The notes beneath the pieces were generated by a model. The model was not told the origin of the DNA. It worked only from the letters and a program-made list of their open reading frames with translations, and ran no database searches. Below are positions 12,204-15,457 of a DNA stretch of 64,000 bases, in pieces. Both the position numbers and the translations under genes were made by a program. How positions within the stretch are numbered: position 1 is the first letter of the stretch; the number at the start of each line of letters is the position of its first letter. The DNA comes from Candidatus Nanopelagicales bacterium (GTDB taxonomy: Bacteria; Actinomycetota; Actinomycetes; S36-B12), in contig JAURME010000119.1 in NCBI GenBank assembly GCA_030830865.1, forward strand, positions 10,532 to 74,531, read 5' to 3'.

Positions 12204-12713
12204 CTAGATGAACAGCAGTTGGGCTCCGTCGGTCATCTCGATGAACTCCGTGGCGTTGATGATGCCGTCGACCCCATCCCAGAGGTCCCCTTCACTCAGG
12301 TGGTTCATGTCCGCACTGAGCTTGCACGCCCAGACGTGGGCGCCGGACGCCTTGATGATCTCCAGGAACTCCGGAACCTCGGGGATCTCGAGGTCATCGA
12401 GCGACTTGTGCATCATGTGCGTCGCCATGGAGGTCATACCCGGCACGGGTGCGAGGGCTGCCGGAATGTGGGCGGCCGGATTCCCCACCGGAGAGAACTT
12501 CAGGTGCTCCATGCGGCCCTTGGTGATGATGTCGAAGCCCCAGAAGGTGAAGAACAGATGCACGTTCACACCTTCACCCAGGGCGGCGTTGCCGAGGATC
12601 AGGCCCGGGTAGGCCATGTCCAGACTGCCCTTGGAGCAGATGATCGCCAGGGTGCGGTCGGTCTCGACCTCATCGTCGAACGACGGGACGATGAGGTCCT
12701 GTGTCGCGGTCAT
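12204..12713 (-). CDS. DsrE/DsrF/DsrH-like sulfur-relay family protein (DrsE_2 type)
   Basis: ATG at 12713 inside track ORF 12204..12968. Family-typical motifs are LAIICSKGSLDMAYPGLILGNAA, FFTFWG, HVWACKLS (conserved Cys) and the C-terminal LLFI. Confidence 0.75.
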   Translation of the reverse strand: MTATQDLIVPSFDDEVETDRTLAIICSKGSLDMAYPGLILGNAALGEGVNVHLFFTFWGFDIITKGRMEHLKFSPVGNPAAHIPAALAPVPGMTSMATHMMHKSLDDLEIPEVPEFLEIIKASGAHVWACKLSADMNHLSEGDLWDGVDGIINATEFIEMTDGAQLLFI

Positions 12714-12724
12714 CGTGGTACCTC

Positions 12725-13039
12725 TCAGACGCAGCCGGCGGGCTTGGGCAGCCCAGCGATGTAGGCCATCTTCTTGGCCGGCTTCTTGGGGAACAGTTGG
12801 AACAGGCGCTTGGTGTCGACACCACCGGCGGTCGAGACGCGCCGGATCGTGGGAGTCGTGCCCTGCGCCTTGAAATCGTCGCGCAGGAAGCGGATGACCG
12901 CCCAGTGCTCGTCGGTCATGTCGACGCCGATGGCCTCGGCGAGGGCCTTGGCGGTGACCTCGTCCCACTCGTCGTAGACGGTCATGAAGCCCTCGTCGTC
13001 AACGGTGACGTCGTGGCCAGCGATGGTGGTGGTAGGCAT
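12725..13039 (-). CDS. TusE/DsrC-family sulfur carrier
   Basis: 104 aa. Has the invariant flexible C-terminal arm ...GLPKPAGCV with a penultimate Cys. The second (CysB) cysteine of true DsrC is absent. Confidence 0.8.
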   Translation of the reverse strand: MPTTTIAGHDVTVDDEGFMTVYDEWDEVTAKALAEAIGVDMTDEHWAVIRFLRDDFKAQGTTPTIRRVSTAGGVDTKRLFQLFPKKPAKKMAYIAGLPKPAGCV

Positions 13040-13076
13040 GATGTTCTCCTTGTTCTGCCGTGGTGCGGAAGGGTGG

Positions 13077-14327
13077 CTACGTGCCGGCGCCGACGAGGTC
13101 GGTGCGCTTGCCGGCGGTGGACATGAGGGGTGGCAGGCCCATGGGTCGACCGGGGATGAGGATGTTCCAGTACATCCAGCGGAAGGCGAGCTTGCCCAGG
13201 TGGTTCAGGTGGGTCTGCTTGAGCAGGCTCATCGGGCCGACACCGGCGACTGGGTACTTGCCGGGCAGTGGCTCCCAGTCGTAGTTGAAGTCGATGAGCA
13301 TGGCCTTCTTGTCGCCGGTCTCGATGAAGCAGTTGGCATGCCCGTCGAACCGGTGCGTCATCTCCTGGCCCGCGATGTACTGCAGGAAGTTCTCCACGAA
13401 GATGTCGATCTCGAAGTGCGCGACGGAACCGGCCTTGGAGGCCGGGATGTCGTTGGCGTCGCCCAGGGCGAAGATGTTGTCGTACGCCTTCGACTGCTGG
13501 GTGAACTTGTCGACCGGCACGAGGTTGATCTCGTTGCCGAGACCTGACCGGGCGACGTAGTCGGCGCCCATGTTCAACGGGATCGTCACCAGCAGGTCGA
13601 AGGGGACCTCCCGCTCGTCGTAGGAGACGAGGGCCTTCTTCTCGTTGTCGATCTCCATGAGCATGAAGTCGGGCTCGACTGCGATGCCCTTCTCGTCCAG
13701 GGTGTCGCCGAATGCCTGGGCTGCGATCGGCTTGGTGAAGGCGCCGGGCAGCGGGGTCACGTAGACCATCTCGACCCTGTCGCGCATGCCCCTCTCCTTG
13801 AAGAAGGAATCGGCGAGGAAGGAGAACTCCAGCGGTGCGACCGGGCACTTGATTGGCATCTCGACGATGTTGATGACCAGGCGACCGCCCTCCCAGTTCT
13901 CGAGCTTCTTGGCCAGCCTCACCGAGCCGTCGTAGGTGTAGAACTCGTGGACGCTGTCACCCCACTGCTCACCGAGCATGCCGTCGGTCTGCTCAGGTCG
14001 CGGGCTGACACCGGTCGCGATGATCAGGACGTCGTAGTCCAGTCGCCGGCCGTCGGTGAGCAGGACCGCGTTCTCGTCGGGCTCGACCCTGTCGATCTCT
14101 CCGTAGACCAGCGGGACGTCCTTGTTCAGGTTCGCCCGACGGCTCTTGGTGATCTGCGTCGGCGTGTATGTGCCGAAGGGCACGAACAGGTAGCCGGGCT
14201 GGTAGCGGTGGTTGTCGTCCGCATCGACGACGGTGACCTCCCAGTCGGACTCGGGCAGCTTTCTCCGCAGTTTGTTGGCCGAGATGGTTCCGGCGGTTCC
14301 CCCGCCGAGGATCAGCAACTTCTTCAT
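13077..14327 (-). CDS. FAD-dependent sulfide:quinone oxidoreductase-like protein
   Basis: ATG at 14327 (MKKLLILGGGTAGT Rossmann) preferred over the Pro/Arg-rich extension to 14387. Has SQR-type cysteines in context (PIKCPVAPLEF, GHANCFIETG), ALGDAN, and an amphipathic C-terminus. Confidence 0.8.
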   Translation of the reverse strand: MKKLLILGGGTAGTISANKLRRKLPESDWEVTVVDADDNHRYQPGYLFVPFGTYTPTQITKSRRANLNKDVPLVYGEIDRVEPDENAVLLTDGRRLDYDVLIIATGVSPRPEQTDGMLGEQWGDSVHEFYTYDGSVRLAKKLENWEGGRLVINIVEMPIKCPVAPLEFSFLADSFFKERGMRDRVEMVYVTPLPGAFTKPIAAQAFGDTLDEKGIAVEPDFMLMEIDNEKKALVSYDEREVPFDLLVTIPLNMGADYVARSGLGNEINLVPVDKFTQQSKAYDNIFALGDANDIPASKAGSVAHFEIDIFVENFLQYIAGQEMTHRFDGHANCFIETGDKKAMLIDFNYDWEPLPGKYPVAGVGPMSLLKQTHLNHLGKLAFRWMYWNILIPGRPMGLPPLMSTAGKRTDLVGAGT

Positions 14328-14390
14328 GTCACGAGCGTGACACGGGAGTGGATCCCGGTCATGGGGCCGAAGTGCGGGACTTGGCATGAC

Positions 14391-14427
14391 GAAGGTCCCC
14401 GTCCGTGGGATCGGATCGGGGACCTTC
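14391..14427 (-). terminator. 10-bp perfect stem-loop between the repeat array and the SQR gene (terminator or regulatory hairpin)
   Basis: GAAGGTCCCC (14391-14400) pairs with GGGGACCTTC (14418-14427), with a 17-nt loop. There is no U-tract. Confidence 0.35.
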
Positions 14428-14436
14428 GGTGGTATC

Positions 14437-14506
14437 GCTGCGGGTCAGGCGCTGCGGGTCAGGCGCTGCGGGTCAGGCGCTGCGGGTCAGGCGCTGTGGG
14501 GCAGGG
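14437..14506. repeat. 14-bp tandem repeat, 4 perfect copies plus 1 degenerate copy
   Basis: GCTGCGGGTCAGGC occurs at 14437, 14451, 14465 and 14479, then GCTGTGGGGCAGGG at 14493. The stop codon of the 80-aa ORF (14487-14489) lies in the fourth copy. Confidence 0.9.
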
Positions 14507-14729
14507 CCTCGTCCATCTGGTCGGCGAGGGTGGCCAGTCGCTGGTGCATCTCCCCGTACTCGAGGGCCTCGTCGATGTAGGGGGTGTCGAACTCGGCGCC
14601 GCAGCGGCACTCGAGCACGAAACGGCACTTCTCGTAGCTGAACGACGAGGTCACCCGATGCCGCTCCTCATGGAGGGGAGCGGCCAGCTCGGTGAGGTGG
14701 CGATCGCGACGAAGGAAGCGCAGATTCAT
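14487..14729 (-). CDS. hypothetical 80-aa Cys/His-containing protein
   Basis: The ORF has very high third-position GC, consistent with coding. It contains CRFVLECRCG plus several His residues. I recognise no family. Confidence 0.5.
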   Translation of the reverse strand: MNLRFLRRDRHLTELAAPLHEERHRVTSSFSYEKCRFVLECRCGAEFDTPYIDEALEYGEMHQRLATLADQMDEALPHSA

Positions 14730-14956: not shown

Positions 14957-15457
14957 TCAGTAGCCGCCATTGGCCTTGTAGCGGTCCCAGGAGGCGTGGA
15001 TCTCCCTCTCGGCATCGGCGCGCCCCACCCACGTGGCCCCCTCGACGCTCTTGCCGGGCTCGAGGTCCTTGTAGACCTCGAAGAAGTGCTGGATCTCCAG
15101 GCGGTCGAACTCGGCCACGTGGTGGATGTCGCGCAGGTGCTCCAGACGGGGGTCACCCGCGGGCACGCACAGGACCTTGTCGTCGCCGCCGGCCTCATCG
15201 GTCATGCGGAACATGCCCACGGCCCGGCAGGTGATGACCACACCGGGGAAGGTCGGCTCCTGCACGAGCACGAGGGCGTCGAGGGGATCTCCATCCAGGC
15301 CCAGGGAGTCGTCGATGAACCCGTAGTCATGCGGGTAGCGGGTCGCGGTGAAGAGCATGCGGTCAAGACGGATCCGGCCGGTGCGGTGGTCGATCTCGTA
15401 CTTATTGCGGCTGCCGGCCGGGATCTCGATGGTCACGTCGAAGGTCAGCGGTTCCAT
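14957..15457 (-). CDS. ppa: inorganic pyrophosphatase (family I)
   Basis: [13 protein letters not shown] and [10 protein letters not shown] motifs; 166 aa. Confidence 0.95.

Follow-up and report, generated by a model that had tools for sequence, protein, structure and literature searches.

The 64-kb window (the whole stretch of 64,000 nucleotides that was analyzed) carries three adjacent genes for a type III sulfide:quinone reductase (SQR), a single-cysteine sulfur carrier of the DsrC/TusE family, and a DsrE2-like sulfurtransferase, which probably form a self-contained sulfide-oxidation and sulfur-relay operon that feeds general persulfide handling. The three genes are conserved together with their reactive cysteines, the SQR and the carrier occur as natural fusion proteins, and further persulfide-handling genes lie elsewhere in the source genome (2.49 Mb, 95% complete, 68% GC; estuary and marine samples). 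This cassette is widespread in Actinomycetota and barely studied. The features of the locus are as follows.

12204..12713, minus strand: DsrE2-like (DrsE_2 family) sulfurtransferase, 169 aa, with Cys130 in VWACKLS (PF13686; nearest solved chain 2qs7)
12725..13039, minus strand: single-Cys DsrC/TusE-family sulfur carrier, 104 aa, with Cys103 in the C-terminal arm GLPKPAGCV (PF04358, TIGR03342, fusions, complex prediction)
13077..14327, minus strand: type III sulfide:quinone reductase (sqr), Cys form, 416 aa, with redox Cys161 and Cys333 (NF049943, ranking of structural relatives, Cys conservation)
14327..14342, minus strand: candidate operator, a perfect 7-2-7 palindrome (TGTCACG-CT-CGTGACA) that ends on the A of the sqr start codon and is the sole copy in the genome
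14391..14427, minus strand: strong hairpin, a probable transcript boundary between an upstream 80-codon ORF and sqr (RNA fold)

Identity and layout of the three genes

The first-pass annotation described three tight co-directional genes, and all three ORFs were found at the coordinates above, separated by 37 nt (sqr to the carrier gene, with an AAGGAG box) and 11 nt (carrier gene to dsrE). Metatranscriptome contigs of a relative about 94% alike span the junction between sqr and the carrier gene; these libraries may hold DNA, and a contig is not proof of a single transcript. The parts of the window that no such contig reaches are uninformative.

The SQR protein begins with MKKLLILGGGTAG and, as the annotation had noted, carries the FAD Rossmann motif GGGTAG (residues 8–13) and both SQR redox cysteines. 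These are its only two cysteines, C161 (PIKCPVAPLEF) and C333 (GHANCFIETG), and their contexts align with those of Cys201 and Cys379 in human SQOR (KCAGAP and TSCPLVTG). At the C-terminus, the segment FRWMYWNILIPG alone aligns with its counterpart in human SQOR. The protein scored 626.2 bits against NF049943, the NCBIfam model of type III SQRs (cut-off 525), over model positions 1–406 of 406, while every other NCBIfam family scored 44 bits or less, including weak matches to CoA-disulfide reductase and ferredoxin reductases; its Pfam match was to the generic Pyr_redox_2 only. The top solved relatives were all SQRs (human SQOR at 3e-38), with NDH-2 appearing only at 2e-06, which upholds the identification of the flavoprotein as an SQR rather than an NDH-2. 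Among 109 sequences, C161 is 99% and C333 93% conserved, and in the rest an in-frame TGA (Sec) takes the place of the C333 codon. With a score above the curated cut-off, both cysteines, and the Rossmann motif in place, we assign the protein to the type III SQRs on the basis of the NCBIfam model and the ranking of solved structures.

The carrier is, judged by its profile matches, a full-length member of the DsrC/TusE/DsvC superfamily PF04358 with the G-C-V arm (113.9 bits, 6e-33, residues 6–104), as the annotation had expected of this profile, and it falls within the broader subfamily TIGR03342 (87 bits, cut-off 53.5). Cys103 is conserved in 100% of 99 sequences. A bona fide DsrC has two arm cysteines, the penultimate residue and another some 10 residues before it; alignment to 1sau places an alanine at the second position in the carrier, and likewise in 14 of 14 aligned relatives. 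Cys103 is thus alone in the arm GLPKPAGCV, as first described, and the protein is not a bona fide DsrC. Neither is it a TusE of the tRNA 2-thiouridine relay, since it scored 72.4 bits against the TusE equivalog model NF008562 (cut-off 191). The earlier label "TusE-like" therefore holds for the cysteine pattern and fails for the family, where the scores lie nearer DsrC.

For the DsrE-like protein, both motifs reported earlier (FFTFWG and VWACKLS) are present, and the suggested profile PF13686 (DrsE_2) matched at 5e-29 (101.8 bits). The DsrE2 equivalog model NF047629 gave 95.6 bits, under its cut-off of 210. The nearest solved chain was 2qs7 (1e-10), named DsrE2B in PMC11094781. Cys130 is 99% and Cys26 89% conserved among 87 sequences.

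Conservation of the trio and coupling of the SQR to its carrier

In an even sample of 300 Actinomycetota genomes, loci with an SQR of at least 50% identity numbered 20, and the order SQR-TusE-DsrE occurred in 19 of them, the single exception being truncated by a contig end. Among loci from named genomes, 78 of 80 show the same order, and contig ends again truncate both exceptions; these genomes include Nocardioides, Kribbella, Micromonospora, Actinoplanes, Humibacillus, Nakamurella, Nanopelagicales, and Acidimicrobiia. Recurrence in about 100 independent loci puts the arrangement far beyond chance, and the annotation was right to treat the genes as one module. No further conserved neighbor genes were found around the trio among the loci compared. 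Catalytic and carrier cysteines are 93–100% conserved across the trio relatives; as an internal control, a 47%-identical SQR paralog (L039) has lost both cysteines and has no carrier genes beside it.

Natural SQR-linker-TusE fusion proteins of 520–626 aa that retain the C-terminal GCV were found in Corynebacterium hansenii, C. lactis, and metagenome-assembled genomes of Propionibacteriaceae and Actinomycetaceae. Two other candidates were set aside: an apparent TusE-DsrE fusion (P0145) reads like a frameshift artifact, with the GCV arm lost and the DsrE part scrambled, and a DUF1641-TusE protein (P0128) has an internal start, may be a gene-calling run-through, and was not used as evidence. DUF1641 itself was not found in the 95% complete source genome.

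Complex prediction for the SQR and the carrier scored 0.70 (the model's own confidence), and the best of three controls scored 0.00. Of 80 solved complexes, 58 attain the 0.70 mark, as do 2 of 110 mismatched pairs; these counts serve only as a rough guide here, where our own alignments were used. Contact agreement among runs was at least 85%, and the partner pLDDT was at least 86. In the predicted complex, the carrier C-terminal arm lies beside the SQR segment just before Cys161, with predicted contacts between carrier residues 101, 102, and 104 and SQR residues 157–158 and 295, adjoining Cys161. The proposal in the annotation that sulfane sulfur passes directly to a carrier protein is thus backed by the natural fusions and by a passing complex prediction, and we infer from them that the SQR may pass its sulfur to the carrier.

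The same contact at the active-site entrance would also suit carriers that clear surplus sulfur from an SQR site that has become over-persulfidated or blocked by polysulfide, sustaining enzyme turnover without being obligatory intermediates, and a carrier tethered in a fusion would be well placed for such repeated local action. According to work cited in PMC10205796, type III SQRs of other organisms need no protein acceptor for activity in vitro, so the carrier may not be obligatory. Such a maintenance role is hard to tell from an obligatory relay without kinetics, but it leaves unexplained a second conserved carrier, the DsrE-like protein, with its own invariant cysteine. We regard maintenance as unlikely, though it is the strongest of the competing explanations, and we favor the relay.

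Partner genes and regulation

According to the annotation, the usual partners of an SQR were missing. Within the 64-kb window this stands: there are no matches to persulfide dioxygenase (PDO), rhodanese, TusA, or the CsoR family, and the nearest metallo-beta-lactamase-fold match on the same contig is 5.4 kb past the window end. The upstream 80-aa ORF matched no Pfam or NCBIfam family. Genome-wide the claim fails. Other contigs encode TusA, another DsrE, and two fusions of PDO with rhodanese, and they also carry ArsR regulators, a single regulator of the CsoR/CstR family, and seven matches to the TauE exporter. One contig (C155) groups a rhodanese-PDO fusion with DsrE2 and TusA, and another (C30) encodes a CstB-like PDO with two rhodanese domains. 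The result for the window is therefore mainly a correction: the pathway is without gaps, and its partners are on other contigs. In the even sample, a CstB-like PDO occurs in 16 of 20 trio-bearing genomes versus 111 of 280 others, and in one genome (G097) it directly adjoins the trio; with the query used, 4 of the 20 trio-bearing genomes had none. No dsrA or DsrAB was found in the source genome.

The emphasis that the annotation placed on an absent sulfide regulator also has to be withdrawn: relatives show CsoR/CstR-type operators before sqr, and the genome has a CsoR/CstR-family gene. Of 94 loci, 26 have an operator of this type (TACC-N6-GGTA) in the 200 bp before sqr, against a background of 0.012 per 205 bp. 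None was found upstream of sqr in the window, which does not class the trio here as a CstR-regulated cst-type operon. At the position where the nearest relatives (L049–L053) carry ATACC-N6-GGTAT, the window has the perfect palindrome, which on its own is weakly significant (roughly 0.07–0.1 expected per upstream region, by our estimate). The trio may be induced by sulfide in this organism. The CsoR-family gene (on contig C113) encodes a protein that lacks the Cu-binding His, and its neighbor is a copA-like gene. SqrR/BigR regulators have a two-Cys pattern; the ArsR regulator on C155 has a single Cys and so does not show it. The HTH_17-sensor regulator seen upstream of sqr in one relative (L087) has no full-length counterpart in the genome, where the HTH part alone matches (contig C156). 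The RNA of 14320–14440 (minus strand), which includes the hairpin upstream of sqr, folds strongly (−53.1 kcal/mol, z = −4.8; 0 of 200 shuffles as good). A consensus scan found no T-run terminator or sigma-70-like promoter around the operon, a scan that is uninformative for an actinobacterium of 68% GC.

These partner genes also bear on whether the carriers instead send SQR sulfane sulfur to biosynthesis (thiolated tRNA, cofactors, Fe-S clusters) rather than to detoxification. TusE, TusA, and DsrE-type proteins act in tRNA thiolation in E. coli, and the small genome and its estuary and marine origin would suit such assimilatory capture. CstA, moreover, can take persulfide off the cysteine desulfurase SufS (PMC5480029). 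But the carrier fails the TusE equivalog model, its linkages and fusions are with the SQR, no locus examined joins it to mnmA-type genes, and the operators of the relatives and the PDO-rhodanese enrichment point to stress handling. We consider this explanation improbable, slightly more so than a maintenance role.

Proposed mechanism and relation to known systems

In the relay that we propose, the type III SQR, on the cytoplasmic membrane face, would oxidize H2S and pass two electrons via FAD to the quinone pool. The sulfane sulfur would be held on Cys161/Cys333 and released neither as free polysulfide nor onto a small thiol; the carrier would collect it on Cys103 of its flexible C-terminal arm, and Cys130 of the DsrE2-like protein may swap persulfide with the carrier, presumably as the recipient. 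In the DsrEFH-to-DsrC and TusBCD-to-TusE relays, as described in PMC11094781, the DsrE-type protein is the donor, an order that is the reverse of the one proposed here. The persulfide would then reach the general set encoded elsewhere in the genome (the C155 rhodanese-PDO, DsrE2, and TusA and the C30 CstB-like PDO), which would turn it into sulfite or thiosulfate that is then exported or oxidized. The trio would serve to detoxify sulfide and to maintain sulfane-sulfur homeostasis, with some benefit to respiration.

More tentatively, we postulate that the type III SQRs of this clade are protein-persulfidating enzymes whose acceptor is the single-Cys DsrC-family carrier, its arm entering the active-site entrance as DsrC does with DsrAB, in place of a small thiol, sulfite, or a polysulfide chain, and that the DsrE2-like protein unloads the carrier; we hold this to be somewhat less probable than the relay operon as such. 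That the flavoprotein is instead reductive or not an SQR (NDH-2-like or CoA-disulfide-reductase-like), with the carriers as its disulfide or persulfide substrates, is very improbable, as the generic Pyr_redox_2 match and the weak matches to CoA-disulfide and ferredoxin reductases that favor it are set against the far higher type III score, the SQR-only ranking of top solved relatives, and two conserved redox cysteines, of which one is replaced by Sec in relatives, and no second Rossmann NAD(P)H-binding match was reported.

The gene combination had been thought uncharacterized, which does not hold: an operon of much the same make-up, type III sqr-tusA-dsrE2, has been published from Methylacidiphilum fumariolicum SolV (MFUM_v2_0219-0221), where it is up 1.7-fold in sulfide-adapted cells and its SQR is proposed to oxidize H2S (PMC10205796). 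This is the closest published case, with a type III SQR first, then a small sulfur carrier, then a DsrE2-type protein. The middle gene there, however, is by its published description a TusA homolog, in contrast to the DsrC/TusE-family protein (PF04358) of the trio; the organism belongs to another phylum and habitat, and the carrier roles there are likewise putative. The Staphylococcus aureus cst operon (CstR-controlled cstA, cstB, sqr, and tauE) likewise couples an SQR to protein sulfurtransferases and a PDO-rhodanese, namely the multidomain sulfurtransferase CstA and the PDO-sulfurtransferase CstB (PMC5480029). Relatives of the trio have CsoR/CstR-type operators, and the genome here has CstB-like PDO-rhodanese fusions and one CsoR-family gene. 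In S. aureus, however, the SQR is of type II, one multidomain carrier takes the place of two separate small proteins, and the genes lie together with the repressor, whereas here other contigs carry the PDO genes and that operator is absent from the window. With the DsrEFH-DsrC and TusBCD-TusE relays, as PMC11094781 describes them, the trio shares an active-site-Cys DsrE-family protein and a DsrC/TusE-family penultimate Cys on a flexible arm. It differs in that DsrAB is absent, no heterohexamer genes adjoin it, its DsrE is of the DrsE_2/DsrE2 branch, its carrier has no counterpart of the second Cys of DsrC, and the sulfur source is an SQR instead of rhodanese and TusA.

The exit of sulfane sulfur from SQR varies by SQR type, and we found no literature account of it for type III. 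Glutathione is absent from most Actinomycetota, and it is in glutathione-lacking bacteria that the question of sulfur exit matters most. With conserved carrier genes, SQR-carrier fusions, and a predicted interface at the active-site entrance, it can be put to a simple test, namely whether the SQR persulfidates a dedicated protein. If so, SQRs would have a third way of releasing their product, and many single-Cys DsrC-like proteins outside the Dsr and Tus systems would gain a first function. Since soil and aquatic Actinomycetota, among them the abundant freshwater Nanopelagicales, commonly carry the cassette, it bears on how heterotrophs handle environmental sulfide.

Gene content and identity of the cassette

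The first-pass annotation described a sulfide:quinone reductase (SQR) gene followed by genes for a TusE/DsrC-type carrier and a DsrE-like protein, and we verified the genes, their families and their order. The source genome (2.49 Mb, 176 contigs, 95% complete) belongs to the phylum Actinomycetota; the GC content of the window is 64–72%, and estuary and marine metagenomes contain DNA near-identical to it.

Features of the locus (window coordinates)
14957–15457, ppa, upstream of the trio
14487–14729, minus strand, small 80-codon ORF, upstream of the trio and downstream of ppa
13077–14327, minus strand, sqr, 416-aa flavoprotein
12725–13039, minus strand, DsrC/TusE-family carrier (tusE), 104 aa, preceded by a 37-nt spacer with AAGGAG
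12204–12713, minus strand, DsrE-like protein (dsrE), 169 aa, preceded by an 11-nt spacer

The next gene after the trio, convergent with it, encodes a PstS-like lipoprotein. A strong hairpin at 14391–14427 (121-nt fold, –53 kcal/mol, z = –4.8) sets sqr apart from the 80-codon ORF, so the trio probably has its own promoter. This ORF, whose product is Cys/His-rich and whose 3′ end is overlapped by four perfect copies of a 14-nt tandem repeat (14437–14506), is kept between ppa and sqr in three close relatives only (L048, L050, and L051; 54–69% identity); because it is absent from the other loci, we place it outside the core cassette.

Against NF049943, the NCBIfam model for type III sulfide:quinone reductases (cut-off 525), the flavoprotein scored 626 bits, and against all other NCBIfam models at most 44 bits. 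Among solved structures, human SQOR was the best match (3e-38), followed by bacterial and archaeal SQRs, with NDH-2 appearing at 2e-06 only. Its only two cysteines, C161 and C333, align with the redox-active pair in human SQOR. NF049943 is named after a selenoprotein subtype; the SQR of the window is the Cys form, and relatives of 39–45% identity have an in-frame TGA precisely at the C333 position. This selenocysteine form occurs at loci L040–L046 (genomes of sampled family f32), where neither a TusE nor a DsrE gene follows directly; at L046, a weak DsrC-like match lies ~0.5 kb upstream. An SQR paralogue of 47% identity (L039, G251:C28), in which Tyr and Gly replace the two redox cysteines, has no adjoining carrier genes; presumably a flavoprotein of different function, it is a useful internal control.

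The second protein belongs to the DsrC/TusE/DsvC family (PF04358 at 6e-33; TIGR03342 above cut-off). It falls below the cut-off of the TusE equivalog model, and its sequence resembles DsrC of archaea and sulfate reducers more than E. coli TusE, keeping the penultimate Cys103 and having Ala where DsrC has its second Cys. The third protein is a member of PF13686 (DrsE_2), under the cut-off of the DsrE2 equivalog, and its nearest solved chain is 2qs7, termed a DsrE2B homotrimer (PMC11094781).

Conservation of the trio and probable coupling of SQR to its carrier

Of 300 genomes sampled evenly across the phylum, 20 encode an SQR at ≥50% identity; gene order is the same (SQR, DsrC-family, DsrE-family) in 19 of these, and a contig end cuts the other. 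A pattern scan restricted to a single genome for each species yielded at least 598 relatives; the full ordered trio is present in 78 of the best 80 among them, contig ends again cutting the remaining two. Cysteine conservation across ~100 sequences is complete for carrier Cys103, 99% for both DsrE Cys130 and SQR Cys161, and 93% for SQR Cys333, where the remaining sequences have TGA. When all neighboring ORFs were clustered, the one conserved feature around the trio was an additional gene, seen between sqr and tusE in roughly one locus in four, whose representative matches DUF1641. An extra gap of 440–1080 nt separates sqr and tusE in ~22 of 78 related loci (L060, L064, L067–L071, L075, L077–L079, L081, L087, L093, L095, L099, L101, L106, L112, L114, L116, and L117), and 14 of these ~22 contain an ORF from the DUF1641-matching cluster. 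Recent work showed that DUF1641 proteins form quinone-transporting scaffolds for Huc, ForCE, and Ndh (PMC13524794); by analogy, relatives with the extra gene may have an SQR–DUF1641 complex. DUF1641 is absent from the window, and a search of the genome gave no match.

A search for longer carrier-containing proteins returned 17 with both Pyr_redox_2 and DsrC domains. These fusions are mostly 520–626 aa and include proteins of Corynebacterium hansenii and C. lactis isolates; in the two examined in full, a Pro/Ala-rich linker joins an intact SQR to a carrier whose last residues are GLPKPKGCV. Complex prediction for the separate SQR and carrier of the window gave 0.70, a score that is the model's own confidence, compared with 0.00 for the best of three controls. 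For comparison, 58 of 80 solved complexes attain that mark, as do 2 of 110 mismatched pairs; both counts are rough because we supplied our own alignments. The runs agree in ≥85% of contacts (partner pLDDT ≥86); on the carrier side, the interface involves residues 101, 102, and 104, on either side of Cys103, which meet SQR residues 157–158 and 295 next to the IKC161 segment. We know of no solved SQR–DsrC-type complex, so a structure already seen in training is unlikely to explain the score. In the predicted model, the carrier apparently docks directly on SQR. In Dsr and Tus relays, the donor is a DsrE-type protein and the acceptor a DsrC-type protein (PMC11094781).

Partner genes and regulation

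The first-pass annotation had noted that the usual SQR partners are missing from the window and proposed that sulfane sulfur passes directly to protein carriers. The absence holds for the window and not for the genome; the interpretation as a whole is supported in part.

Partner genes on other contigs of the source genome
C155 (3.9 kb), one strand: ArsR-family regulator and rhodanese–persulfide dioxygenase (PDO) fusion
C155, opposite strand: second DrsE_2 protein, TusA, and 4Fe-4S protein running off the contig
C30, contig end: CstB-like PDO with two rhodanese domains

The two C155 arms are divergent (L017:652–3952), and the 4Fe-4S protein is NrfC-like with a hydrophobic segment beginning at the contig end; together, these genes may form another sulfur module, linked to the membrane. 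C130 ends in an exact repeat of the final 43 codons of the C30 gene (C130:9097–9225, C30:10891–11022), probably an overlap of these contigs in the assembly. The genome further encodes a single CsoR/CstR-family protein (on C113) and gave seven TauE matches and one molybdenum domain of the sulfite-oxidase type; a search for dsrA found nothing. Within the 300-genome sample, a CstB-like PDO was found in 16 of the 20 genomes with the trio and 111 of 280 others, a tendency rather than a statistical test because related genomes are not independent. The unpublished genomes G001 and G120 enter this background count and no other result. In G097, this gene directly adjoins the trio.

TACC-N6-GGTA, an inverted repeat with the G/C tract that typifies operators of the CsoR/CstR family, occurs within 200 bp upstream of sqr in 26 of 94 related loci, against a background of 0.012 per 205 bp in the rest of these loci, and overlaps the sqr start codon in the nearest relatives (73–82% identity). 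These sites indicate that a CstR-like repressor probably controls the related loci in trans. At the same position, the window has a different perfect 7-2-7 palindrome (14327–14342), single-copy in the genome; canonical ATACCCC-N2-GGGGTAT-type sites lie away from the trio. There are four such sites (C5:3484–3499, C53:1786–1801, C113:18077–18090, and C113:26731–26746): one precedes a lipoprotein rhodanese gene, one has a small membrane-protein gene on one side and an ABC-2 permease gene on the other, one precedes the CsoR-family gene by a copA-like gene, and one precedes a thioredoxin gene. The C113 regulator is missing the His of the Cu(I) C-H-C triad and may therefore sense persulfide rather than copper. 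Some relatives have an HTH_17-type regulator gene directly upstream of sqr, such as L087:4315–5004 (plus strand) on an Acidimicrobiia chromosome; its product, which is excisionase/MerR-like and has an uncharacterised domain at the C-terminus, is a candidate for a dedicated regulator, and the source genome contains no full-length relative of it. In two metatranscriptome runs of one study, contigs ~94% alike span the sqr–tusE junction, a weak hint because they come from a relative, DNA can contaminate libraries of this kind, and a contig is no proof of a single transcript.

Relation to known systems

The nearest published case is the operon of Methylacidiphilum fumariolicum SolV, 1.7-fold up in sulfide-adapted cells (PMC10205796), which like the window combines a type III SQR with a DsrE2-type protein but has a gene product described as a TusA homologue in place of the DsrC-family carrier. 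The cst operon of S. aureus, in which SQR is encoded with protein sulfurtransferases and a PDO–rhodanese under CstR (PMC5480029), illustrates the general principle; the window differs in that its carrier is of the DsrC family and apparently docks directly on SQR, and in that the downstream enzymes are scattered. A full-text literature search returned no paper on an SQR with a DsrC/TusE-type partner, and the cassette is largely new to the literature. We conclude that the window has a typical representative of a type III SQR cassette that occurs widely and has been little studied, a variant of the known SQR-plus-sulfurtransferase theme.
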